From sequence record NC_027330.1: 45,403 nt of DNA. One strand, given 5' to 3'. The stretch's first letter is position 1. Each line of letters begins with the position of its first letter. This document shows, in pieces, positions 5,185-43,486 of the stretch. The notes beneath the pieces are model-generated. The model searched no databases. It was not told the origin of the DNA and was given only the letters and a program-made list of their open reading frames with translations. The position numbers and the translations under genes were made by a program. This stretch comes from Escherichia phage ECBP5.

Positions 5185-5525
5185 AACTAAGTTATGAAGA
5201 ACTTGAGGCCAAGTGCGCTGCGCTGGCTGCGGAGAATGCGGGGCTGAAGAGTATACAGGAGTGGGCGGTTTCAGGCGTATTTAAATCAGGAGCTAAGGTA
5301 TTCGAGTCAACCAAAGCATCAGGATTTGACACTGACGACTGCCTACATGATGCGGTGCTTGTGATGCTATCTGAGCTGAAAACCCCGGCCACCGACGCTT
5401 TTCTGGCTGAAGTACGGGCGCAGGGTGTGGAGATGTTTGCAAAATATATAGCCCTTTACAATTCCAACTCAGAGCACCATGCGCAATCGTTCGCCGCACA
5501 GCTTCGCAAAGGGGTGCAGTTATGA
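5181..5525 (+). CDS. Hypothetical protein (114 aa)
   Basis: ORF translationally coupled to flanking genes. Confidence 0.6.
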   Translation: MKLSYEELEAKCAALAAENAGLKSIQEWAVSGVFKSGAKVFESTKASGFDTDDCLHDAVLVMLSELKTPATDAFLAEVRAQGVEMFAKYIALYNSNSEHHAQSFAAQLRKGVQL

Positions 5526-5743: not shown

Positions 5744-5948
5744 TGTTAAGAAAAGTAAAATGAGAGGTACTGGAAATGTTTACCCAGGCCACCTAAGGCC
5801 TGACACCTATGAAAGGTTTACTGTTGAGGCCATGTTTCACCAGTTTATGCAAGAATCAATAGGTGATAAGGTGGAGGTTGTAGCAGTAGTTGAGTACAGA
5901 GATGGCACTGTAGAAACTGTACCATTATCTGCTATTAGCTTTGGGTAA
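5730..5948 (+). CDS. Hypothetical protein (72 aa)
   Basis: GGGAGGG RBS upstream of ATG; followed by a terminator hairpin. Confidence 0.5.
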   Translation: MRKVNVKKSKMRGTGNVYPGHLRPDTYERFTVEAMFHQFMQESIGDKVEVVAVVEYRDGTVETVPLSAISFG

Positions 5949-5994: not shown

Positions 5995-6078
5995 GTACTA
6001 GTTTGATAGTACAGTTGTTGAGAGTTATTCTCAGTCTAGTATACTAGACTAGACCGAATCGTACTAGTTGGCTAGTAC
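5995..6078. repeat. Cluster of three short palindromes
   Basis: GTACTAGTTTGATAGTAC, AGTCTAGTATACTAGACT and GTACTAGTTGGCTAGTAC in tandem. Confidence 0.7.
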
Positions 6079-6153
6079 AACAGGCGTTCCTACGTGAATA
6101 CTTTAAAATTTTGCGGGCGATTATCCGTCAGAATTTAAAGTTTTCTGAAAATC

Positions 6154-6175
6154 TTTAGGCACTACAATAGGGAGC
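6154..6175 (+). promoter_or_regulatory. Phage-RNAP promoter candidate (consensus copy)
   Basis: TTTAGGCACTACAATAGGGAGC; resembles the T7-class promoter layout (CACTA..ATAGG core, +1 G). Confidence 0.6.
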
Positions 6176-6274
6176 AAGCTAAGTAAGTTAAGTAAGCTAT
6201 AGTAAGCTAACTAAAGCTTAGTAAGCTCCCCTCTTTCCCTCTTTATAGAGGGATATAATATAGTAAGCCTTATC

Positions 6275-6313
6275 AGCCCTCTTGAGTGTAGTAGCTCAGG
6301 AGGGCTTTATTTT
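6275..6313 (+). terminator. Rho-independent terminator candidate
   Basis: 12-bp stem AGCCCTCTTGAG/CTCAGGAGGGCT (one mismatch) followed by TTATTTT. Confidence 0.6.
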
Positions 6314-6331
6314 GTCTAGTACACTAGACTG
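6313..6331. repeat. Palindrome AGTCTAGTACACTAGACT family copy
   Basis: GTCTAGTACACTAGACTGG. Confidence 0.7.
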
Positions 6332-6530: not shown

Positions 6531-8543
6531 ATGTCTATTGTTATGAACCTACCTTGTCCTGCCTGTCAAAAGAATGGTGCAGATAGGCATGGTAAATATT
6601 TGATGGTATTCAGTGACGGAGGAAAACTCTGCTTACATACTCACAACCATGATAACCGTGAGCGCTACTATGAGCCACCAGATGGTAAAGACCCTGTGTT
6701 TGACCGTGAGATTGATGGCAAGGTTCAGTATTCTCCTGAGCAGTTCCGCAAGCTGGAATCAGATGGCAAGCTGAGTGATTCTTTTACTCGTCATCTGGCT
6801 ATGTCTGGTATGAGGATGAAAGACCGCTATGAGATTCTCACTGATGATGAGCGCACAGCTCTGGAGAATGAGTGGCGCATGGACATGGAGTGGTTTGATG
6901 GTCTTTCCTTTAAGTCACTAGCTGACCGTGGCATACACGGACTAATCGCCAAGCTTTATAATGTGCGAGTGGGTCATGATGAGTCTGGTAAAGTCGTCCG
7001 TCACTACTACCCTACTTATGACAGCCAGCTCAATCTGATTGGAGCTAAGTGTCGTACACTGCCTAAAGAATTTATGTTCGGGCATCTTGGTCGTCGCTTT
7101 GGTGATACTGCATTGTTCGGTATTCATACCCAGCAGGCTGTACTTGATAGTGGTACGTTCAAGAAAGGTAAGATGGGTAAGCTGCTGGTAGTTGGCGGTG
7201 AGTGCGATGCGATGGCAGCTCAGCAGATGCTTGTCAAGAGTCTCAATAAGCTTGAGCAGTTCAATGGGCTGAAGTCACTTGATGGCCTGCGTCTGGCTCA
7301 TGTGTGGTCGCCAACTAAAGGCGAGACAGCACTAGAGGAGATAGTAGCTAACCGTGAATACCTCAATCAGTTTGAGGATATTGTATGGGGCTTTGATAAT
7401 GACGATGTAGGCAACAAGCTTAACCTTGACTGCTCCCGCCTGTTCAGACAGAAGTCTAAGTTCTTTAACTACCCAGCTGGGTGCAAGGATGCCAATGACT
7501 GCCTGCTCAAAGGTAGAGAGAAAGAGTTTGTAGATGCATGGTGGCAGCCAGCAGAGGCTAGAGTTAAGGGCAAGCTGCGAGAGGCTGGTCACTACGCTAA
7601 GCGAGCTAAGCAAGCTGTAGAGATGGGCTTGTCATACTTCTGTGAAGCTCTCAACATGATTACATTTGGTATTCGCCTGCGTTACTTGTCTGTGTGGGGT
7701 GCGGGTACTGGTGTTGGTAAGACTGAGATTACTACTCAGCATATTACTAGCCTTATCAAGCAAGGTAAGCCAGTGGTAGCTATCTACCTTGAGAACAGTC
7801 CAGAAGAAGTCCTCAAGATGGTGGCAAGCCAGATGGCTAACAAGGACTTTATGAGTCCACCACTAGGTGAGGATGATGAGTACGATGCATCTAGGGATTA
7901 CACTCAAGAGGAATTAGACGCTACAATAGATGACTTAGTAGCAACTGGCTTGCTTATCATACCGGACCTTGAAGGTAGTAAGGATGTAAACGTAATAATG
8001 GAAGTCCTTGAAGATGCATTAGCATTAGGCTACCAGTATTATGTTATTGATAACCTGACAGCCTTTGAGCACTACGTAGATGGTAAGGTTCAAGTGGGTG
8101 TAGCTGCTATTGATGAGACTATGAAGCGCATCGGTACGTTTAAGGATGAGCATGACGTCAACATTATGCTTCTCACTCACTTAAGTAGACCAGAGAAAGG
8201 CCGTGACCCTCATGAGCTTGGTGGTGAAGTCTATATCACTGACTTACGTGGTGCAGGCTCTATCAGCTTTTGGGCTAATGGTGTATGGGGCATCGAGCGT
8301 AATACACAGGCTGAAGCTATCAGTGACAAGTGTACTACGCTGCTGCGTAACCTCAAGTCTCGTGGTGTAGGCCACAAGGTAGGCTCCACAGTTGTGCTCC
8401 GCAAGGACATTACAACTGGTGAGTTTGAGTACCTTGAAGGTGTTCATGAGCTGCCTCAGGTTGGCAGGAAGAAGAAGGAGAGCAAGCGTGATGCGCAAGC
8501 TCAACGGTTTATTGATGATGCAGATACTGACGGAGAGTTCTAA
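6531..8543 (+). CDS. Bifunctional DNA primase-helicase (T7 gp4-like)
   Basis: N-terminal Cys4 zinc ribbon CPACQ...CLHTHNH, TOPRIM-like acidic motifs, Walker A GAGTGVGKTE, acidic C-terminus ending in Phe (DTDGEF); start set at ATG 6531 (GGGAGG RBS) rather than GTG 6513. Confidence 0.92.
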   Translation: MSIVMNLPCPACQKNGADRHGKYLMVFSDGGKLCLHTHNHDNRERYYEPPDGKDPVFDREIDGKVQYSPEQFRKLESDGKLSDSFTRHLAMSGMRMKDRYEILTDDERTALENEWRMDMEWFDGLSFKSLADRGIHGLIAKLYNVRVGHDESGKVVRHYYPTYDSQLNLIGAKCRTLPKEFMFGHLGRRFGDTALFGIHTQQAVLDSGTFKKGKMGKLLVVGGECDAMAAQQMLVKSLNKLEQFNGLKSLDGLRLAHVWSPTKGETALEEIVANREYLNQFEDIVWGFDNDDVGNKLNLDCSRLFRQKSKFFNYPAGCKDANDCLLKGREKEFVDAWWQPAEARVKGKLREAGHYAKRAKQAVEMGLSYFCEALNMITFGIRLRYLSVWGAGTGVGKTEITTQHITSLIKQGKPVVAIYLENSPEEVLKMVASQMANKDFMSPPLGEDDEYDASRDYTQEELDATIDDLVATGLLIIPDLEGSKDVNVIMEVLEDALALGYQYYVIDNLTAFEHYVDGKVQVGVAAIDETMKRIGTFKDEHDVNIMLLTHLSRPEKGRDPHELGGEVYITDLRGAGSISFWANGVWGIERNTQAEAISDKCTTLLRNLKSRGVGHKVGSTVVLRKDITTGEFEYLEGVHELPQVGRKKKESKRDAQAQRFIDDADTDGEF

Positions 8544-9863: not shown

Positions 9864-10136
9864 ATGGTTAAAGATACTAGCTGGCAGGCTTACCAAGAAA
9901 TCCTGCGCGGTGGTGTGGCTGTTAAGCAAGCTGAGAAAGTCTTGCAAGTTATTAACTACTTCCCTGAAGGTGTTACCCGTGCTCAGTTGGCTCAGGGTAT
10001 GAACATGCCAATCAACTCAGTTTGTGGTCGTGTCAACGAGCTGCTGAAAGCTGAGGTAATCTATGTGTCAGGTACTGGTAAGTGTCCAGTAACTGGTAGG
10101 ACTGTTGAGATGCTGAAGGTGGTTGAGTATGAGTAA
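9864..10136 (+). CDS. Putative winged-helix DNA-binding protein (90 aa)
   Basis: Helix-turn-helix-like segment VTRAQLAQGMNMPINSVCGRVNELLK followed by a beta-hairpin-like YVSGTGKCPVTGRTVEM; assignment by eye only. Confidence 0.5.
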   Translation: MVKDTSWQAYQEILRGGVAVKQAEKVLQVINYFPEGVTRAQLAQGMNMPINSVCGRVNELLKAEVIYVSGTGKCPVTGRTVEMLKVVEYE

Positions 10137-10815
10137 TATTATCGCAGGCGCTATTGAGCTTGAAGAAGCAAAAGAATCCAAGGCCAAAAGCTTCAGTGTA
10201 GAAGATGTGCTTAAGAAGATTAAGGAGCACACGTTTGGCTGTGTAGTAGCTGGTGGTTATTGTCGTGACGTGTTTCATGGGGTGGCACATAAGGACATTG
10301 ACATCTGCATGTATAACTTCCACCCAAATGATGCTGGCGAGGTTGTCTTAGCTAATATGTTGTGGAAGTGGTTATCAACCAATGTTGCTGCTGAGAACAT
10401 TACAGCAACTAGTGGGGAGGACTATGATGACAAGCGCATACATTTTGTATGGCATCTTCCCTATCACAATGTGGACATCATCTGCTGGAACGCACACTCC
10501 CATACAAAAGTATTAAGTGGCTTTGACTGCAACCTTAATCAGTTCTACTTGCCGTCAACTGTTCCTTACTTTGATGGTGAGTCTGAGTATACACCAGACA
10601 TCAAGGAACACCCTGTATACTTTGGAGATGATTGCCCTGACTTCTTATTATTCCTTAAAGATCTACCCGATGAACGTGTAACTAAGATGGTTCAGAAGCA
10701 TCAGGCATTCTACCCAGCAGCTTGGTGTGGAACACAGGAGCCTGTTGTCTACTTTGATAAGATGCAAGGCTTTCCATGTGGGTTTGATGAAGACTTAGAT
10801 GAGATAGCTTGGTAA
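10123..10815 (+). CDS. Pol-beta-superfamily nucleotidyltransferase, CCA-adding/poly(A) polymerase head-domain type (230 aa)
   Basis: GGYCRDVFHGVAHKDIDI matches the GGxVRD...KDxD signature of the tRNA nucleotidyltransferase/PAP family; downstream FDCNLNQ resembles a degenerate RRDxTIN motif. Confidence 0.6.
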   Translation: MSMSNIIAGAIELEEAKESKAKSFSVEDVLKKIKEHTFGCVVAGGYCRDVFHGVAHKDIDICMYNFHPNDAGEVVLANMLWKWLSTNVAAENITATSGEDYDDKRIHFVWHLPYHNVDIICWNAHSHTKVLSGFDCNLNQFYLPSTVPYFDGESEYTPDIKEHPVYFGDDCPDFLLFLKDLPDERVTKMVQKHQAFYPAAWCGTQEPVVYFDKMQGFPCGFDEDLDEIAW

Positions 10816-13412: not shown

Positions 13413-13433
13413 TATTAAGCACTACAATAGGTA
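13413..13433 (+). promoter_or_regulatory. Phage-RNAP promoter candidate
   Basis: TATTAAGCACTACAATAGGTA immediately after the DNAP stop. Confidence 0.5.
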
Positions 13434-13802: not shown

Positions 13803-14567
13803 ATGTCTTTAGATAACTTTGACTTCGGCGCAGACCTAGCAGAAGCGTCTGGTGTCAAACGAGTAAACCCTGAAGTTGGCTTGCACTTTGCTCGTTTGCG
13901 TAGTGTGATTCACTTAGGCTCAATTGCTGCCATGTACCGTGGAAAGCCAAAGCCACCAGTTAACAAGGCTGCTTTCATCTTTGAACTTAAGGGCGACCTT
14001 GATGAGATTGATGACCTGCACCCTGACAACGGTGAGCCATTGTGCATCGGCATCGGGGTTAACCTTACCAAAGGTGACAATGCCAAGCTCACAGAAGTTA
14101 TGGCAGCTCTCATCTCTAAGAAGGAGATGGAGGAAGGTACTGTCAAAGGTATGGATGACCTGATTGGTCGTGTCTGCCAGCTTGACCTGAAGGGCAGTGA
14201 TGCCAAGGGTGATGACGGTAAGCCTAAGTACGTTGACATCAAATCACTCAGCCCTGTGGCTAAGGCATTCGCCGCACAGATTCCTGAGCTGTCAGTAGCT
14301 GGCGTAGGTCACTGCCGCCTGTCTCAGCTGTCTATGGCTGCGATGGATGAGCTGAACGTGTTCCTCGATGTCCAAGAGGGCATCATGAAATCTGAGGAGT
14401 GGAAAGCAGGAACGCACCCAGCAATCGCTCTGGTAGAGGAAATCCGCAAGGAGCGTCCGAACTATGCCAAGGCTGAGAAGAAGTCTGACAAAGGCGCTGA
14501 CGAGCCACAGGGCGAGCAGGAGCCGTCTAAGCCAGCTGAGCAGATGAACACCGATGAGGAGTTCTAG
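13803..14567 (+). CDS. Putative ssDNA-binding protein (T7 gp2.5-like by size and tail); acidic C-terminus ending in Phe
   Basis: AGGAGAAAC RBS before ATG 13803; C-terminus ...EQEPSKPAEQMNTDEEF; N-terminal DNFDFGA motif shared with the exonuclease; SSB call is an inference. Confidence 0.6.
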   Translation: MSLDNFDFGADLAEASGVKRVNPEVGLHFARLRSVIHLGSIAAMYRGKPKPPVNKAAFIFELKGDLDEIDDLHPDNGEPLCIGIGVNLTKGDNAKLTEVMAALISKKEMEEGTVKGMDDLIGRVCQLDLKGSDAKGDDGKPKYVDIKSLSPVAKAFAAQIPELSVAGVGHCRLSQLSMAAMDELNVFLDVQEGIMKSEEWKAGTHPAIALVEEIRKERPNYAKAEKKSDKGADEPQGEQEPSKPAEQMNTDEEF

Positions 14568-14609
14568 TCTAGTACACTAGACTGAAGCCGTACTAGTTAG
14601 CTAGTACGG
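14564..14609. repeat. Two adjacent palindromes (family copies)
   Basis: TCTAGTCTAGTACACTAGACTGA and CCGTACTAGTTAGCTAGTACGG. Confidence 0.7.
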
Positions 14610-14610
14610 T

Positions 14611-14633
14611 ATTAGGCACTACAATAGGAATAG
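14611..14633 (+). promoter_or_regulatory. Phage-RNAP promoter candidate (consensus copy)
   Basis: ATTAGGCACTACAATAGGAATAG. Confidence 0.6.
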
Positions 14634-14750
14634 AATGCTCAACTTATGCATCCCTGTATCTGGCGGTCGCTACAAAGGATACAGGTTGCCTATAGGCTGT
14701 AATGGTGTCCAAAGCCAACGGCTTGGGTGGTGCATAAGCATGAGCATTCT
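14634..14750 (+). other. Structured element between tandem promoters (nested inverted repeats); candidate small RNA or replication origin
   Basis: Outer inverted repeat ATGCTCAACTTATGCA / TGCATAAGCATGAGCAT enclosing hairpins CCTGTATC..GATACAGG and CCAAGCC..GGCTTGG; no ORF. Confidence 0.35.
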
Positions 14751-14755
14751 TAACC

Positions 14756-14779
14756 TATTAAGCACTACAATAGGAATAG
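14756..14779 (+). promoter_or_regulatory. Phage-RNAP promoter candidate
   Basis: CTATTAAGCACTACAATAGGAATAG. Confidence 0.55.
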
Positions 14780-14814
14780 TAGAATAGCCACACCGTGTGT
14801 GCTCCCTTCTCAAC

Positions 14815-14838
14815 CTATTAAGCACTAAATAGATATAG
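14815..14838 (+). promoter_or_regulatory. Promoter-like repeat with 2-bp deletion in the core (possibly weak or inactive)
   Basis: CTATTAAGCACTAAATAGATATAG; about 35-bp duplication of the preceding promoter block. Confidence 0.35.
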
Positions 14839-14875
14839 TGAATATCTCTTTCAAACTTTATGAGGAATTAATATT

Positions 14876-15235
14876 ATGGCATTTGTAATCAAATCTGATG
14901 TATCCAGTCGTATCGTAGCTGGCTCTTTCAAAAAGTCTGAGTTCTTCTATGTAGCTGATGAAGCTACTGGTGAGCTGGTTGGTAAGAAGTCTCACGACAT
15001 TCGTGAAGAAGCTGAACTGGAGCTGGCTGGTCTGGCAGGTCTGGAAGCTGGTCTGGAGTTCGCTAAGGCTCAGTTCCCTAAACTGTCCACTAAAGCTCAG
15101 GTTGGCAAAGCCAACGTAATCTCCGAGTATCTGGCTTGGGAAGCAGCTGGTAAGCCAGTTAAGTCTGTTGAAGAAGCAGACTCTGAAGAAGTACCGGAAG
15201 CTCCAGAAGCTGCCGCAGAAGACGAAACATTCTAA
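14876..15235 (+). CDS. Acidic 119-aa protein with SSB-like acidic C-terminal tail ending in Phe; probably highly expressed
   Basis: Preceded by three promoter-like motifs and followed by a strong terminator; net negative charge; C-terminus EAPEAAAEDETF. Confidence 0.75.
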   Translation: MAFVIKSDVSSRIVAGSFKKSEFFYVADEATGELVGKKSHDIREEAELELAGLAGLEAGLEFAKAQFPKLSTKAQVGKANVISEYLAWEAAGKPVKSVEEADSEEVPEAPEAAAEDETF

Positions 15236-15290: not shown

Positions 15291-15413
15291 ATGCCTGTTT
15301 TCAAAAGGGTTTGTATGCTGTGTGGTACAGCGTTTTCTCCGGTTAAGAAAAGTCCATTCCTTTGCATAAGGTGTTACAGGAGTTGTGTTAAAGAGAGGGC
15401 TACTAATGTTTGA
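15291..15413 (+). CDS. Small zinc-ribbon-like protein (40 aa)
   Basis: GGAGGG RBS 5 nt upstream; CxxC...CxxC (CMLCG...CIRCY); stop overlaps the exonuclease start; not in ORF track. Confidence 0.4.
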   Translation: MPVFKRVCMLCGTAFSPVKKSPFLCIRCYRSCVKERATNV

Positions 15414-16491
15414 TAACTTCGACTTTGGGGCTGAGGTAACTGAACGTGTAAGCCCTGTAAAGCTGTGGCCTACTGAGGGTAGTGTGGTTGGCTTAGTAGA
15501 TGCTGACCTGTTGCCATATAACATTGCTTATGGCCTTGACCCGCTGAAGGTATTGCGAGCACAGAACAGAGTAGAGTCAGGTGACTGCTCCAGTATTAGC
15601 GAGACACCAGAGTTTATTGATGCTGCTGAGTCTATGGCTACCCGCATGAACAACTGGCTTGAGGAAGCTGGCTGTGATGCTGCCATTCCATATATGACGA
15701 AATCAGATAGCAACTTCAGGCTTGATGTAGCTTTCTCCAGACCGTACAAAGGTCAGCGTAAGAAGGAGAAGCCACCATTCTTCTATGAGTTGCGTGACTT
15801 CCTTATCAGCCACATGGGTGCTGTGATGTCAGATGGTGAGGAGGCTGATGACCTTATCTCTATGGAGGCTGAGCGTCGCAACAAGCTGCTTGAGGAACAG
15901 GGCATTGTATTAGGCTCACCTACTCATAAAGAGTTCTGTGACTTTGTTATCATCTCATCTGACAAGGATAGCCGCATCACAGCTGGCAGACACTATGACC
16001 CTTATCACATGAAGCTCACCTTTGGTACACCTGTTGGTGAGCTTGAGCCTGTTTATAAAGACGGGAAGATTAAGACTATCAAGGGTAGCGGCTTGCGCTT
16101 CTTTTATGCTCAGCTTCTAATGGGCGACCAGATTGATAATTACACTGGTATCCCTCGCTACAGGTTGCAGAAGGTCTACGAGCTGCTTGGTCAGCTTAAG
16201 ACAGAGCAAGAGCTTTATTATGCTGTACTTGAAGCTTATAAAGATAAGTATGGCAAGGGTATGGTGGTGGAAAACTACCGTGGAACTAAGAAGTTCTATG
16301 ATGACTACATGGATGACTTTGGAGTACCGCCACCTGATTATGAACTTTGGAAAGGCAAGAAAGCTTTCCTCACACCTTATCAGCTGATGGTAGAGCAAGG
16401 GAGACTTGCGTACATGCAGAAGTTTAAGGGTGACATCTGGAGAGCTAATTGCAAGCTTCCATCAGGTGGAGACTTGAGCGCATGGAGTTAA
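15406..16491 (+). CDS. 5'-3' exonuclease (T7 gp6-like, FEN family)
   Basis: VGLVDADLLPY, IISSDKDSRI and GDQIDNYTGIP parallel T7 gp6 segments; start at ATG 15406 (AGAGAGG RBS). Confidence 0.88.
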   Translation: MFDNFDFGAEVTERVSPVKLWPTEGSVVGLVDADLLPYNIAYGLDPLKVLRAQNRVESGDCSSISETPEFIDAAESMATRMNNWLEEAGCDAAIPYMTKSDSNFRLDVAFSRPYKGQRKKEKPPFFYELRDFLISHMGAVMSDGEEADDLISMEAERRNKLLEEQGIVLGSPTHKEFCDFVIISSDKDSRITAGRHYDPYHMKLTFGTPVGELEPVYKDGKIKTIKGSGLRFFYAQLLMGDQIDNYTGIPRYRLQKVYELLGQLKTEQELYYAVLEAYKDKYGKGMVVENYRGTKKFYDDYMDDFGVPPPDYELWKGKKAFLTPYQLMVEQGRLAYMQKFKGDIWRANCKLPSGGDLSAWS

Positions 16492-18052: not shown

Positions 18053-18640
18053 ATGAAAGACACTTATATCTTTGACTTGGATGGTACATTAGCTTGCGGT
18101 AAACACCGCTTGCATCTGCTCCCAACTAAGGATACTGCACACCGTACAGAAGCTTGGGATAGTTTCAATCTTGCTGCTGGTGGTGATTCTCCAATCCTTG
18201 ACAACATCCGACTGATGAATGAATTGTTCCAGTTTGGTAAGCGTATCATCATCCTGTCTGGTCGTTGTGATGTAGCTAAGGCTATTACTGAGAAGTGGCT
18301 GTGGGAACATGGCTGTAACTTCAATCAGCTTATTATGCGCCCAGCAGCTGACCATCGTCGTGATATTGAGTTCAAGGAAGAGAAGCTGCGTGATATTGGC
18401 CTTGAGCGAATTGTAGCTTGCTTTGATGACCTTGAGCATGTTGCCAAGCACATCCGTAGCTTGGGTGTTACTTGTCATCTTGTCACTCACTACGACACTA
18501 ATTGTGTGTCAGTGAGCCAACATGTTCGCTACCCTGAGCCAAAGACTGATGATGATAACTTGTGGGATACAGAGGAAGGTGCAACTTTCAATGAAGGTTA
18601 TAACCAAGCTATTGAAGACACCAAGGAGCTTAATAAATGA
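18053..18640 (+). CDS. HAD-family phosphatase resembling the 3'-phosphatase domain of T4 polynucleotide kinase
   Basis: HAD motif I FDLDGTL; ILSGR, KEEKL and DDLEHV segments parallel the T4 Pnk phosphatase domain. Confidence 0.8.
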   Translation: MKDTYIFDLDGTLACGKHRLHLLPTKDTAHRTEAWDSFNLAAGGDSPILDNIRLMNELFQFGKRIIILSGRCDVAKAITEKWLWEHGCNFNQLIMRPAADHRRDIEFKEEKLRDIGLERIVACFDDLEHVAKHIRSLGVTCHLVTHYDTNCVSVSQHVRYPEPKTDDDNLWDTEEGATFNEGYNQAIEDTKELNK

Positions 18641-19203
18641 TTGTAATTCTTAATGCTCCACCGGCATCTGGTAAAGATACCATTGGAGGAATCTTAGCTG
18701 ACTGGCATGGCTGGAAAGCTCTTAGCTTCAAGAAGCCTATGTTTGACTTAGCTAAGTCTCTACTAGGTGAAGAGAAGTATGCACAGTTCCTTGAGTTGTA
18801 CAATGACCGCAGCACTAAGGACAAGCCTACTAGTCTTTGTGGTGGGCTGTCACCTCGTGACTTCTTCATCCATATCTCTGAGAAGATGTGCAAGCCACTG
18901 TTTGGTGAACAATACTTTGGTGAGCGCTTCCTTGAGCTGGTTAGCAATGAGGTAACTACTGTAGTTACTGATGGCGGCTTCCCTCAGGAAGTTCGTCCAA
19001 TGCTGGATGCAGGTCATAAGGTTGTTATTGTACGCTTGTTCCGCAAGGGCTATGACTTCTCTAATGACTCACGCCGCTACTTAACTGAGCAGGATTTCTC
19101 AGACTTGCCAACCTTCCGTAGCCCTTCATTCCTTGATGTTGAGCTTACAGAGGGTCATCCTTATCGTGCAGCTGATTACATCTTTAATAAGCTAGAGGGT
19201 TAA
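18637..19203 (+). CDS. P-loop nucleotide/polynucleotide kinase (T4 dNMP kinase-like)
   Basis: P-loop NAPPASGKDT resembles T4 gp1 dNMP kinase SGKDT; ATGA overlap with the phosphatase gene. Confidence 0.7.
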   Translation: MIVILNAPPASGKDTIGGILADWHGWKALSFKKPMFDLAKSLLGEEKYAQFLELYNDRSTKDKPTSLCGGLSPRDFFIHISEKMCKPLFGEQYFGERFLELVSNEVTTVVTDGGFPQEVRPMLDAGHKVVIVRLFRKGYDFSNDSRRYLTEQDFSDLPTFRSPSFLDVELTEGHPYRAADYIFNKLEG

Positions 19204-19204
19204 T

Positions 19205-20158
19205 ATGAACGTATTTGAGTTCCTTGGCTACCCAGCTGACCACCGACCTAAGAGCAAGGTTGTGCAGCTGGTTAAGCATTGGGATGAAGTACCTGAAAGC
19301 CGTAAGCAGTATCCGTATTATGCGCAGGTCAAGAAAGACGGTGTGTTTGGTATTGTTGTGGTAACTAAAGATGATGATGGCAACATTGCTGTTTCTGTCT
19401 TCGGTCGCACAGGTGAGCAGCTCAGTAACACTGAGGCAATCTGCTCACGCTTCCTTGAAGGTTACATTGCTGAGGGCATCTACATTGGAGAGGTGCTTAC
19501 TCAATCTCCATGTAGCCTTGAGGAGCTGTCAGGTATCCTCAACCCTAATCGTGTCAATAAGCTGGACATCAATCAGGAAGTTATCAAGTGGAACTTGTAC
19601 ATTGCTCTGCATGATTGCTTAACTGAAAAGATGTTCATAGCTGGCACATCAGCTGGCATCAGCTACCACACACGCCACGCTAGCTTGATGAAGCGTATTG
19701 CAGGTACTGACCTAGAGGAAAGCGCACTACCTTACACAGTCATTCACGATGACAAGCAGAAGGAACAGTTCACTAAAGCTTGCATTGCTGCTGGGGAGGA
19801 GGGTGCAGTCTACAAGCGTCCTGGCTGTGAGTGGGAAGCTGGTCATAAAGGCTGGCATCAGATGAAGGAAGTACGTGAGGTAACGTATGACCTAAAGTGT
19901 GTAGGCTACGAGGAAGGGTCAGGCAAGTACAAAGGAAAGGTCGCTAACCTTATCTTCCAATGGAGAGATGGTGAGTCTATTAAGGCCATGCTTGGTAAGG
20001 GCTATACCCACAAGGATGCTGAAGATATGTTCAATGACCCAAGCTTGTTTATGCATAAGGTCTTCCGTATTCGTGGCCTGCAAGATAGTAGCAAAGGCAA
20101 GATTAGATTACCTAAAGTACAAGAGGAACGTTATGACAAAGTTACCGGAGATTATTAG
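19205..20158 (+). CDS. ATP-dependent DNA ligase
   Basis: Ligase motif I KKDGV, motif IV EGAVYK, motif V WHQMKEV. Confidence 0.9.
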   Translation: MNVFEFLGYPADHRPKSKVVQLVKHWDEVPESRKQYPYYAQVKKDGVFGIVVVTKDDDGNIAVSVFGRTGEQLSNTEAICSRFLEGYIAEGIYIGEVLTQSPCSLEELSGILNPNRVNKLDINQEVIKWNLYIALHDCLTEKMFIAGTSAGISYHTRHASLMKRIAGTDLEESALPYTVIHDDKQKEQFTKACIAAGEEGAVYKRPGCEWEAGHKGWHQMKEVREVTYDLKCVGYEEGSGKYKGKVANLIFQWRDGESIKAMLGKGYTHKDAEDMFNDPSLFMHKVFRIRGLQDSSKGKIRLPKVQEERYDKVTGDY

Positions 20159-38283: not shown

Positions 38284-38305
38284 ATTAGGCACTACAATAG
38301 GAGAA
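38284..38305 (+). promoter_or_regulatory. Phage-RNAP promoter candidate (consensus copy)
   Basis: ATTAGGCACTACAATAGGAGAA followed by AGTAAG-repeat leader. Confidence 0.6.
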
Positions 38306-38422
38306 AGCTAAAGTAAGTACAGTAAGTAAACAGTAGCTATAAATAGCTATAGTAAGCTTTAGTTAGCCTAAGTAGTAACCTACTTATTGTCTTATTATAT
38401 TCTTTATAAGGAGAGCTATTAG

Positions 38423-39368: not shown

Positions 39369-39926
39369 ATGAATACATTACTAATGCTACTTGCGTTAAT
39401 AAATCCTGTTCAGAAGTTAGAGCAAGATTTATCAAAGCACATAGAAATTTATACACACCAAGGAGGTTCCGAGTTGAATCGCAGTCAATTCCAGCGCTAT
39501 ATATTGCGCCCTACCCTTGAGAAGCTTGGTCTATACTCGCCACAAGCTGAGCGCTTGCTGACTATGATTGTAGCCCATGAATCTCTCAAGGGTCATTATA
39601 TTGTACAGACCACAGGGCAGGCTAAAGGCTTGTACCAGATGGAGAATGCAACACACGATGATGTGCTGCGTTGGGTTCACAATAACCGTCCTGAGCTTTA
39701 CCGTGAGATTGTAGAAATGGGTGATGGTCAGCCGTCAGCAGTTAAGATGATTACTGACTTAGACTATGCAACCGCTATGGCTCGCGCGTTCTTCCTCCGC
39801 TTTCCTGAGCCGTTGCCGACAGGCAACGACGAGGAGCTTGCAGCATACGCTAAGAAGCGCTGGAACACTCACTTAGGTAAGGCCACTCCTGACGACTACT
39901 TGAAGGCTTATCAGTCTTGGAAGTAA
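39369..39926 (+). CDS. Lytic transglycosylase-like protein (putative endolysin)
   Basis: AHESLKG...GQAKGLYQME fits the ES...GLxQ transglycosylase signature (compare T7 gp16 N-terminus TESRF...GPLGMMQF); short N-terminal hydrophobic stretch. Confidence 0.7.
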   Translation: MNTLLMLLALINPVQKLEQDLSKHIEIYTHQGGSELNRSQFQRYILRPTLEKLGLYSPQAERLLTMIVAHESLKGHYIVQTTGQAKGLYQMENATHDDVLRWVHNNRPELYREIVEMGDGQPSAVKMITDLDYATAMARAFFLRFPEPLPTGNDEELAAYAKKRWNTHLGKATPDDYLKAYQSWK

Positions 39927-40038
39927 GTTGCAGCAGCTGGTGTCAGCTTAAGTGGCAGGAGGCAGTTGAGTCAGGTGATGACTTAGCTGCCAGTGACTAT
40001 CTAAAGCTCTATGAGCTTTGGAGTAGCAGAGGTATGTA

Positions 40039-40353
40039 ATGAGTACAAGCAATATACCTAGCTTAGGTGGCTTCACTCCTATTGAGTCTCTTGTAAAAGG
40101 CGGTAGTGCTAAAGACATCTTCAATCCAATGAACATCTGGAATGATGGTGCAGGTGTATTACAGAAGCCATCGTCCTTGTTTACCAAGGAGACTATTACT
40201 GGAACAGGTAAGGACACTGAGAAGTCTCGTACTAAAGCTCAGGAAGAGGAAGATAGTGCTGCTGCTAAGCAAAGCTCTAGGGATGCTAACAAGTGGCTCA
40301 ACTGGACACCTAGTAGAAGTAGCACTAATACTAAAACTGGTTTATCTATTTAG
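40039..40353 (+). CDS. Hypothetical protein (104 aa)
   Basis: ORF with internal acidic patch. Confidence 0.5.
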   Translation: MSTSNIPSLGGFTPIESLVKGGSAKDIFNPMNIWNDGAGVLQKPSSLFTKETITGTGKDTEKSRTKAQEEEDSAAAKQSSRDANKWLNWTPSRSSTNTKTGLSI

Positions 40354-42696: not shown

Positions 42697-42873
42697 CTAG
42701 GTAGCCATTAGTGGTTACTGTAAGCTGGCCTTGAAACTTAAAATAGGGTGGACAGTTACAGCAGTTCCCGCCGCCGCCAGCTTCAGCTTTCCCCCATCGG
42801 GGTGGCTGCTGGCAACCTCTTAGGCCGCAGGCAGTTAGAGGGGGGGTGGGTAGGCTGGCTAGGTAGCTGGCAG

Positions 42874-43033
42874 TAGACCGACTGGTCTAGCGTAAGTCAT
42901 TGATGTTGTATCAGCTAACGAGTACATGAGAGCGCTGTACGTGAATACTTGCTGGCTCAAGCTGGCTGTGGCTCACAGAATTCTCCAGAGTGCGCTATAC
43001 ATATCAATGACTTACGTTAGACCGACTGGTCTA
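42874..43033. repeat. Two direct copies of 16-bp near-palindrome TAGACCGACTGGTCTA flanking an inverted repeat CGTAAGTCATTGAT / ATCAATGACTTACG
   Basis: Copies at 42874-42889 and 43018-43033; inverted repeat arms at 42891-42904 and 43003-43016. Confidence 0.75.
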
Positions 43034-43486
43034 CTAGTGGCTGGTCAGGCAGCTGCTGTGAGCTGGCTAGGTGGCTTACGGATAGCCGATTGTGAGCAGC
43101 CAGTGAGCCGCTGTGGGCTTCAGCTCCGCTGTGGCTACGGTTGGCTTGCCAGTGGCTTGAGGCGCTCTGTGAGCTGCTGAGGGCTGTGGCTTGCTGTACT
43201 CGTGTGCTAGTACGCTGCTGTGTGTATCTGTCTTTAGTCTGATGGGCTACTGTCTTTAGTTTGCTGCACCACTGGTAGCTTATTGGGTAGCTCATAGGTA
43301 GCTTACAAGGCTCACAGCTTGCTGGTACTACTGAGGGCTTACTAGGTAGCTTGCTATCACTGACTAGGTAGCTGCTGTTAGTTCACTAGGTAGCTAGCTA
43401 TGGCTTACTAGGTAGTTACTAGGTGGATTGATGTAAGCTTACTCAAGCTCTCTCTTAGTGCATCATTCGATGCACAATATAAGAAG

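Follow-up and report, generated by a model that had tools for sequence, protein, structure and literature searches.

Between two tandem promoters in the replication gene cluster of Escherichia phage ECBP5 lies a short element rich in inverted repeats, for which the initial annotation offered two roles: a highly transcribed structured RNA, or a replication origin. Which of these roles fits the element, and is its structure more than a chance fold? The window, by which we mean the whole stretch of DNA analysed (45,403 nucleotides), is in essence a full phage genome of the Gajwadongvirus-like type (Autographiviridae), in which the genes follow the SP6-type order and all lie on the + strand. Its first 25 kb display 91-94% identity, over 80-89%, to Vibrio phage JSF38, Pectobacterium phage PP99 and the Klebsiella phages Roth32, RCIP0053, RCIP0089 and vB_Kp_Z1.

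Genomic context and phage promoters

The locus is preceded by the genes for DNA polymerase and for an SSB-like protein, and followed by those for an exonuclease and endonuclease VII (coordinates of the individual features are collected in Table 1). The gene directly upstream, a member of phrog_862, probably encodes a gp2.5-like SSB; its match to the NCBIfam model 'rep_init_NGO0469' is below threshold (50 bits against a cutoff of 75). The double hairpin between this gene and the first promoter (fold z = -3.8) is kept in all Gajwadongvirus-like relatives, and the complete module occurs a second time at 6034-6079, while its first hairpin motif has about seven occurrences in the window against 0.02 expected.

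A 20-nt motif, ATTARNCACTANAATAGRNA, is found ten times in the genome, always on the + strand, where 0.05 copies are expected by chance. The copies are mostly intergenic, with matches at 7913 and 34887 located within mechanical ORFs. By analogy with SP6 and T7 promoters, we infer that the motif is the promoter of the phage RNA polymerase, with transcription starting at the G that follows ACAATA. Two copies, P1 and P2, form the direct repeat D2 and enclose the element, which thus lies, as originally described, between tandem promoters and directly after a consensus one. P2 is a hybrid, with an upstream half like the P2 of the relatives (TATTAAGCAC) and an initially transcribed half of the P1 type (GGAATAG); the copy that corresponds to the P2 of the relatives (GATATAG) is P3, which may be weakened by the 1-nt deletion in its core. 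Between P2 and P3 a short second cassette (c2) is found, whose ends (AGAAT...TTCTCAACC) are similar to those of the main element, c1 (AGAATGCTCA...ATTCTTAACC), and make up the direct repeat D1 (95%). The promoter array is directly followed by an AT-rich stretch that overlaps the ribosome binding site and start of the next gene. Signals of the host type were looked for around the element: no intrinsic terminator was found, and sigma-70-like sites numbered one, against 1.0 expected from shuffles. Leader hairpins closed at the 5' end are common in the ECBP5 genome, one example being the transcript from the promoter at 6154, which opens with a 61-nt hairpin (GGGAGC...GCUCCC) closed from +1.

Table 1. 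Features of the inter-promoter locus and its surroundings (coordinates in the window).
Feature	Coordinates	Strand	Basis or remarks
Upstream gene, 254 aa from ATG	13803..14567	+	phrog_862; acidic tail ...NTDEEF
Double hairpin, GTCTAGTACACTAGAC then CCGTACTAGTTAGCTAGTACGG	14567..14609	+	abuts P1, directly 3' of the stop codon of the SSB-like gene
Promoter P1, TATTAGGCACTACAATAGGAATAG	14610..14633	+	motif; putative +1 at G14627 by SP6-type promoter analogy
Structured RNA domain, cassette c1 (predicted)	14627..14755	+	129 nt, from +1 of P1 to the CC just 5' of P2
Closing helix, 5' arm (predicted)	14632..14652	+	terminal-duplex test z = -5.96; predicted pair list
Hairpin H2 (predicted)	14653..14685	+	8-bp perfect stem CCUGUAUC/GAUACAGG with apical extension; z = -3.3 alone
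Hairpin H3 (tentative)	14688..14728	+	six G-U pairs; z only -1.4 alone
Closing helix, 3' arm (predicted)	14729..14750	+	predicted pair list
Promoter P2, TATTAAGCACTACAATAGGAATAG	14756..14779	+	motif; putative +1 at G14773
Short second cassette c2	14780..14815	+	CACAC/GUGUG mini-hairpin; fold z = -0.8
Promoter copy P3, TATTAAGCACTA-AATAGATATAG	14816..14838	+	orthologous to P2 in the relatives; core lacks 1 nt
AT-rich stretch	14826..14895		GC 0.229; rank 1, most AT-rich 70 bp in the genome
Downstream gene, 119 aa	14876..15235	+	phrog_4429; acidic C-terminus ...EDETF; first gene behind P1, P2 and P3

Predicted structure of the element

The outer inverted repeat (I1) reported for the element is present, with ATGCTCAACTTATGCA at 14635-14650 and TGCATAAGCATGAGCAT at 14731-14747, and so is the first internal hairpin, whose arms are CCTGTATC (14653-14660) and GATACAGG (14678-14685). 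The second internal hairpin had been described as CCAAGCC opposite GGCTTGG; the GGCTTGG arm exists (14720-14726), but the 5' arm at 14709-14716 reads CCAAAGCC, and the pairing of the two is obtained with DNA parameters only and is absent from the RNA minimum free energy fold, in which this part of the element pairs otherwise.

RNA folding, which had been suggested as a check, strongly singles out the element. The + strand RNA of 14625-14760 is predicted to fold at -60 kcal/mol, compared with -35.7 +/- 3.6 for dinucleotide shuffles (z = -6.81), and none of the 200 shuffles reaches this stability. After correction for GC content, the element ranks first among 3019 overlapping 130-nt windows covering the genome. 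The - strand also folds well (z = -5.97). For c1 the predicted energy ranges from -57.7 to -60 kcal/mol, with pair probabilities that are mostly at least 0.9. In the predicted fold the first two nucleotides of the transcript pair with the CC preceding P2 (G14627-C14755 and G14628-C14754), and the closing helix consists of 10 bp (14632-14641/14741-14750), a 1x2 internal loop and a further 10 bp (14643-14652/14729-14738), with predicted pair probabilities of 0.93-1.0. An A-U/U-G step is located in this helix at 14650-14651. Above it, H2 and H3 are carried on a predicted three-way junction.

The closing helix and H2 are also predicted to form in single-stranded DNA (z = -4.7 with DNA parameters). 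The interior is structured by itself (z = -2.85 once the closing helix is removed), and its energy amounts to -28.6 kcal/mol on the + strand against -21.0 kcal/mol on the - strand. This difference is due to eight G-U pairs, six of which make H3 specific to the + strand RNA, so that a structure acting at the RNA level fits better than one acting at the DNA level.

Searches for homologues and known families

Searches at several levels, made to obtain homologues for the suggested covariation analysis, returned no copy of the element outside the window. Only promoter-sized matches were obtained by blastn against 50,697 phage records, no copy was found by the same method in 72,556 plasmids and 5,426 E. 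coli genomes, and no exact 20- to 34-mers of the element occurred in IMG/VR. A gapped pattern describing the stem gave five matches in one genome each of 100,044 species, all of them chance matches without extended similarity. When the flanking proteins and the conserved upstream hairpin were used as queries, four to five IMG/VR contigs and one metagenome contig were recovered, and the element was present in none of them. Across the collections searched, the element is therefore an orphan at the level of sequence.

Several known classes were considered and rejected. ARAGORN predicts no tRNA or tmRNA genes in the window, and the Rfam tRNA model gives no match around the element even at E <= 10; no family of Rfam 15 (riboswitch, ribozyme, sRNA or antitoxin RNA) is matched at the gathering thresholds anywhere in the window. 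Relaxing the cutoff to E <= 10 within 14400-15000 yields a single match, to an unrelated S15 leader (14816-14917, E = 1.2), in the region of the ribosome binding site of the next gene. A miniature inverted-repeat mobile element would agree with the terminal inverted repeats, yet the element is single-copy in the window and found nowhere else in the collections searched, and no flanking target-site duplication was detected apart from the promoters themselves. In the literature found that names Gajwadongvirus, the promoters, the origins and the region of the element are not discussed, and among publications on tRNA-like sequences or on tRNA nucleotidyltransferases in Autographiviridae (the latter together with Pectobacterium) no description of the slot between the promoters was found.

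The element had also been described as devoid of an ORF. A mechanical ORF of 50 aa does exist on the + strand (14635-14787), with its ATG 9 nt past +1, and a second one, of 51 aa, on the - strand (14670-14825), so that a small protein could formally be encoded here. The 50-aa product, however, has no homologue among 5.8 billion proteins, a search that also served to catch related elements through spurious gene calls; its ORF lacks a Shine-Dalgarno sequence, runs through P2 and has its start codon buried in the closing helix, and an equivalent ORF is absent from the relatives. We consider a coding function exceedingly improbable.

A hypervariable slot in related phages

Alignments between the window and its relatives break exactly at the element. 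The homologous intergenic region was extracted from 19 further loci, and almost all of these display the same architecture of P1, insert and P2, with inserts of 30-120 nt. When all cassettes were aligned in search of hidden homology, only the promoter flanks could be aligned. Comparison of six relatives with the window gave 83-97% identity for the 220-nt flanks, but for the cassettes an identity equal to that of shuffled sequences.

What the cassettes have in common is how they are closed. In nearly every relative, the first nucleotides after the promoter are predicted to pair with the last ones before P2. A test in which the terminal 18-nt arms are compared with shuffled arms was applied to 14 cassettes from Gajwadongvirus-like and more distant relatives, each located between two promoter copies; single p values go down to 0.001, and the Fisher-combined p is about 2e-13, a generous figure since some of the 14 cassettes are mutually related. 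Stem-closed inserts are found in this slot for at least 13 cassettes other than that of ECBP5. Most of their closing stems are only 5-9 bp long, and their overall fold is modest (z from -2.7 to +1.2), which rules out a uniformly high stability across the slot: only the terminal stem is consistently significant. The common denominator of the slot is a closed RNA domain between two promoters.

Two cassettes are shared between phages. Klebsiella phage RCIP0089 and Pectobacterium phage PP99 have the same insert, and their closing stems differ by a single, fully compensated pair (G-C to U-A). Another insert carries the annotation tRNA-Ser and is shared by vB_Kp_Z1, Roth32, RCIP0053 and two metagenomic contigs; it scores 35.3 bits against the Rfam tRNA model (threshold 29), which it covers in full, but a stretch of 13 nt takes the place of the 7-nt anticodon loop and ARAGORN rejects it. 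At the homologous position of SP6 and of Aeromonas phage AerP_220 there is a single promoter and no insert, which eliminates SP6 as a precedent for the slot and indicates that the slot is a derived and dispensable trait of the ECBP5 lineage.

The window itself bears a trace of how cassettes may be exchanged. Two of them, c1 and c2, are stacked here, and the promoter that separates them is the P2/P1 hybrid described above. The simplest account would be an unequal crossing-over within the 23-bp promoter cores of two phages that carried different cassettes, whereby c1 and c2 became stacked; the promoter repeats would then behave as portable recombination sites. Such a rapid turnover is not a general property of modules of this kind, since in T7 relatives of about 90% identity the R1.1 site between the tandem promoters can still be aligned.

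A candidate replication origin module

Replication of T7 starts at phi1.1A/phi1.1B, and secondary origins such as phiOR and phi6.5 can be used as well (PMC8373140). In T7 these two promoters start at 5848 and 5923, and the 58 nt from the +1 of phi1.1A form a hairpin that extends to just before phi1.1B (z = -3.2). This hairpin is the classical R1.1 RNase III substrate. The record of Yersinia phage R carries the corresponding annotations in the order phi1.1A, 'R1.1; RNase III cleavage site', phi1.1B and 'rep_origin; primary origin', the last of which extends into gene 1.1. The window shows the same succession: P1, a domain of hairpins from +1 onwards, P2 (with P3), and an AT-rich stretch overlapping the start of a small gene. 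As a control, the statistic for AT-rich 70-bp stretches was applied to T7, where the stretches downstream of phiOL, phi6.5, phi1.1B and phiOR take ranks 1, 2, 3 and 5.

The T7-like layout together with the top-ranking AT-rich stretch makes the idea of an origin reasonable for the locus, and by analogy with T7 we regard P1-P2-P3 and 14826-14895 as the strongest candidate that the ECBP5 genome offers for a promoter-primed origin. The origin proposed in the initial annotation therefore suits the surroundings of the element better than the element itself, whose bases occupy the position of R1.1 rather than that of rep_origin and have a GC content of 47-52%.

It is conceivable that the element nevertheless takes part in initiation, acting as a DNA structure or within the primer RNA of a T7-type promoter-primed start, and its location in the replication gene cluster, in an array whose signature (three tandem promoters followed by the most AT-rich 70 bp) also picks out the known T7 origins, would agree with this, as would the closing helix and H2 that single-stranded DNA could adopt. 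We nevertheless judge it very unlikely. The slot of the relatives contains unrelated sequence or nothing at all, H3 depends on G-U pairs that are impossible on the opposite strand, and GC skew is uniformly positive across the window, with no inflection at the element; the arms of the inverted repeat are 76 nt apart, at which distance a ready extrusion of a cruciform would not be expected.

Proposed function and alternative explanations

The reading that we tentatively prefer, at somewhat less than an even chance, is that c1 is a cis-acting RNA processing and stability cassette of the RNase III type, located inside the candidate primary-origin module and swapped at the promoter repeats. The + strand RNA of c1 would be made by the phage RNA polymerase, either from P1 itself or by read-through of transcription begun upstream (a promoter is located at 13414). 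Its first two bases would pair with the CC before P2, and its next 21 and last 22 nt would form a 20-bp helix of two turns. Host RNase III could then cut this RNA, separating the SSB message from the downstream leader and leaving protective stem-loops behind, while in transcripts from P1 the fold would bury the 5' end. The cassette would thus act in cis on RNA and not as origin DNA, and relatives would exchange the insert by recombining at the 23-bp promoter repeats.

Several properties of the element agree with such a role. The RNAs cut by E. coli RNase III typically comprise about two turns of helix, short helices that stack coaxially can replace a continuous one, internal loops confine cutting to one strand, and the 3' hairpin that remains protects the upstream RNA (PMC1540722). 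Against the length taken from that work, about 20-22 bp of quasi-continuous double helix, the predicted helix of 10 + 10 bp is adequate, and the element lies in the putative transcript of the coding strand, in an intergenic position beside phage promoters, as an R site does. The two 10-bp halves with their 1x2 loop, predicted to stack under H2, fit such substrates, and it is on this structural model that a processing signal is proposed. The alternative put forward in the initial annotation, a highly transcribed structured RNA, is supported as far as computation allows by the start at the +1 of P1, the exceptional fold and the stem-closed inserts of the slot, with transcription itself deduced from the promoter. 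RNase III cleavage cannot, however, be what the cassettes of the slot have in common: at 5-9 bp most closing stems of the relatives are too short for this enzyme, and the tRNA shape of one cassette would direct it to RNase P instead. So fast a turnover would moreover be unexpected for a simple processing site, given that R1.1 stays alignable among T7 relatives, and the dispensability of the insert in SP6 and AerP_220 also counts against a processing cassette.

The same turnover speaks for a small RNA acting in trans. The slot would in that case be an expression site, in which a strong P1 drives a host-specific RNA and P2 restarts the message, the RNA being cut out by way of its closing stem and serving as a decoy or inhibitor of an RNA-targeting defence, or as a substrate for RNA enzymes that the phage itself encodes. 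Complete replacement of cassettes between flanks that are 83-97% identical, quite unlike the behaviour of R1.1, is the pattern of an arms-race locus; stable RNAs that are excised typically have their 5' and 3' ends paired, and the interior of c1 is structured independently of its closing helix. One relative's cassette resembles a tRNA that lacks a normal anticodon loop, and the phage encodes the head of a CCA-adding-type nucleotidyltransferase (GGYCRD...DIDI, phrog_1614, with a weak match to the NCBIfam CCA-transferase model), a PNKP-like phosphatase, an adjacent P-loop kinase-like protein (dNMP kinase according to PHROG) and an ATP-dependent ligase. Phage genes for tRNA nucleotidyltransferases of such a type have been described (PMC9145550, PMC8472413); a sequence search of the ECBP5 protein against solved structures gave no meaningful match. 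Fast turnover, a tRNA-shaped cassette and the phage RNA enzymes together make a trans-acting or decoy RNA a serious alternative, although on balance we hold it to be rather unlikely: c1 shows no likeness to a known antitoxin, CRISPR repeat, tRNA or sRNA, nor to sequences from plasmids or E. coli, neither a terminator nor a defined 3' end was detected, and the cassettes do not track the host genus, as RCIP0089 of Klebsiella and PP99 of Pectobacterium share one, while in some relatives the insert is only 30-36 nt long or absent. That the element is instead a recombination scar without function, junk between promoter repeats whose stem arose from an inverted duplication and has no selected role, appears still less probable, and decidedly unlikely. 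The orphan sequence, the hybrid P2 and stacked cassettes as signs of recent rearrangement, the young appearance of near-perfect arms of 16-17 nt, and the absence of an insert from SP6 and AerP_220 would all suit a scar. Against it stand the recurrence of terminal stems in independent, unalignable cassettes, including one compensatory change, and the interior hairpins, which give structure beyond an inverted repeat; a neutral insert would also be expected to be lost soon by deletion between the 23-bp promoter repeats.

A broader and more speculative proposal, which we think unlikely, concerns the slot as a whole. SP6-type phages (Gajwadongvirus, Tolavirus-like phages and their relatives) might possess a hypervariable site for non-coding RNA cassettes, at which promoter copies serve as integron-like sites for swapping and stacking, a strong promoter drives a stem-closed RNA, a second one restarts the mRNA, and the cargoes are host-specific. 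That promoter copies act as swap sites is supported by P2, with its hybrid make-up, and by the stacking of two cassettes in the window. Cargoes of such a site may include the 129-nt RNA with a three-way junction described here and the tRNA-shaped RNA of the Klebsiella phages, which has no usable anticodon loop, and they may serve as decoys for RNA-targeting defences or as partners of the CCA-adding-type enzyme, the PNKP-like phosphatase and the ligase.

The slot matters in several ways. If c1 is an R1.1-type site in an origin-type module, the locus is a testable candidate for the primary origin of SP6-like phages, which is unmapped, and the arrangement of promoter, hairpin, promoter and AT-rich stretch would have arisen outside the T7 subfamily. 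Less expected is the wholesale replacement of the insert between phages that are about 93% identical, with the terminal stem kept and with one of the inserts tRNA-shaped, in phages with a CCA-adding-type enzyme. This turnover points either to a rule for 5' leaders according to which any closed structure will do, or to small phage RNAs that are shuffled under host-driven selection, and both readings bear on the engineering of expression and replication modules of the T7 and SP6 types. On its own, the orphan element amounts to one unsupported fold; a concrete new pattern is seen in the hypervariable slot between the promoters, with its stem-closed inserts.

Comparison with known systems

The closest known system is the phi1.1A/phi1.1B module of T7, and by analogy c1 may be seen as a variant of its R1.1 site that lacks homology to it, is larger and is rapidly exchanged. 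Each extends from the +1 of one tandem promoter to just short of the next, each comprises about two turns of interrupted helix (predicted in the case of c1), and each has a replication or transcription gene on its 5' side and an AT-rich leader on its 3' side. The two have no sequence similarity, however, and c1, with 129 nt and a three-way junction, differs from the single hairpin of about 58 nt in T7. Furthermore, the slot of c1 holds unrelated inserts in relatives of 93% identity, whereas R1.1 is alignable at 90%. The likeness extends to the primary origin of T7, in that tandem promoters are followed in both genomes by a top-ranking AT-rich stretch over the start of the next small gene. In the window, though, the module is not syntenic with the T7 origin, as the genes ahead of it are those for DNA polymerase and the SSB-like protein and not that for RNA polymerase, it is a candidate origin only, and the bases flagged initially are the insert between the promoters rather than the AT-rich region.

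Two further systems resemble c1 in the way the RNA is closed. The tRNA-like cassette of Klebsiella phages vB_Kp_Z1, Roth32 and RCIP0053 shares with it the slot, the flanking promoters, a stem joining the 5' and 3' ends, and the termination in N-CC just 5' of P2; c1 nevertheless has no cloverleaf, T-loop or tRNA score, and the two sequences cannot be aligned. In bacterial rRNA precursors, 16S and 23S rRNA are bracketed by stems at which RNase III excises them. There too a long helix of flanking sequence surrounds a structured cargo, and in c1 a double-strand cut would likewise release the interior, but the cargo of c1 measures only about 76 nt and the likeness is one of analogy alone.

Promoter copies and insertions at the slot

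The intergenic slot between the gene encoding the SSB-like protein and that encoding the 119-aa protein bears marks of rearrangement. Of the phage-RNAP promoter copies located there, P2 and P3 lie within 14756-14838. P2 is chimeric, its upstream half being P2-type and its transcribed half P1-type, while the core of P3 reads ACTAAATAG versus the usual ACTACAATAG, a deletion of one nucleotide. The chimeric P2 and the deletion in the P3 core are together taken as evidence of unequal crossover at the promoter repeats, and possibly of a promoter that has been inactivated.

In several relatives, the cassette inserted between the promoter copies is annotated as 'tRNA-Ser'. This cassette scores 35.3 bits, above the Rfam tRNA threshold, and was rejected as a tRNA by ARAGORN. 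Its anticodon loop is replaced by 13 nt with a GAAA-closed mini-stem as the cap, and its 3' end reads A-CC-U, with promoter P2 immediately adjacent. The ECBP5 genome encodes a set of RNA-repair-like genes, which may be connected with these tRNA-like cassettes. The set comprises a nucleotidyltransferase of 230 aa with a CCA-adding-type head (GGxxRD...DxD; phrog_1614), a PNKP-type phosphatase, adjoined by a P-loop kinase-like protein that PHROGs classifies as a dNMP kinase (phrog_139), and an ATP-dependent ligase.

The slot lies in a hotspot of homing-type insertions, and these might add to the turnover of sequence nearby. The HNH gene downstream of the slot is variably present: at the position that it occupies in Klebsiella phage vB_Kp_Z1, phage RCIP0089 carries an unannotated gene of equal length, 474 nt (from 1089 in its extracted locus L005, cut at the locus end), and no HNH gene was found in the slot neighbourhood of ECBP5 or Roth32.

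Coordinates of features in ECBP5 and in extracted loci of its relatives (L-numbers)
Feature	Sequence	Position	Remark
GTCTAGTACACTAGAC hairpin copies	ECBP5	1372, 6034, 6314, 9560(-), 14567, 39338, 43697	only 9560 marked (-)
Double hairpin module	ECBP5	6034-6079, 14567-14608	GTCTAGTACACTAGAC then CGTACTAGTTRGCTAGTAC
'tRNA-Ser' annotated at homologous slot	L001 (vB_Kp_Z1)	1734-1811	same cassette in L002, L003, L009, L018
HNH endonuclease gene	L001 (vB_Kp_Z1)	2289-2762	one gene downstream of slot
HNH gene	L022 (Nufs112)	1-245	just upstream of SSB-like gene
RNA-repair-like gene set	ECBP5	10123-10815, 18053-18640, 18637-19203, 19205-20158	
Further strongly structured intergenic regions	ECBP5	42766-43150, 39925-40040	

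Recurrent hairpins and structured leaders

The 16-nt hairpin motif GTCTAGTACACTAGAC is present in about seven copies versus 0.02 expected, two of which have a second hairpin, CGTACTAGTTRGCTAGTAC, after them. This double module, which is retained in relatives, has a phage promoter downstream in both cases. The motif may cause phage-RNAP to terminate or pause, stabilise 3' ends, or bind a protein.

Structured RNA is also predicted elsewhere. Downstream of the promoter at 6154 (region 6154-6315), a 61-nt hairpin rich in AGUAAG repeats and closed at the inferred transcription start is followed by a second hairpin and then by a terminator-like 13-bp stem with a U-run (z = -5.6, folding stability against shuffled sequence); this arrangement would yield a short transcript of approximately 140 nt. 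The leader of the promoter at 38284 (38284-38370) is likewise AGUAAG-rich, and the 70-bp stretch that ranks second in the genome for AT content lies there. One of the two further structured regions has an unusually high GC content of 0.62-0.65 versus a genome average of about 0.46, and the other holds two hairpins with perfect stems, 13 bp and 10 bp long (z = -4.0). Separately, a stretch of 62 bp (5379-5440) is matched at 95% identity by the eaE genes of Salmonella and Escherichia phages related to P22, an otherwise unrelated phage group.

Motifs of the flanking proteins

The SSB-like protein (13803-14567) and the exonuclease (15406-16491) have in common the N-terminal motif DNFDFGA(D/E), which may serve both as a docking peptide. 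At the C-terminus, the SSB-like protein reads ...NTDEEF and the 119-aa protein (14876-15235) ...AEDETF; both tails are acidic and finish with an aromatic residue, like that of T7 gp2.5.
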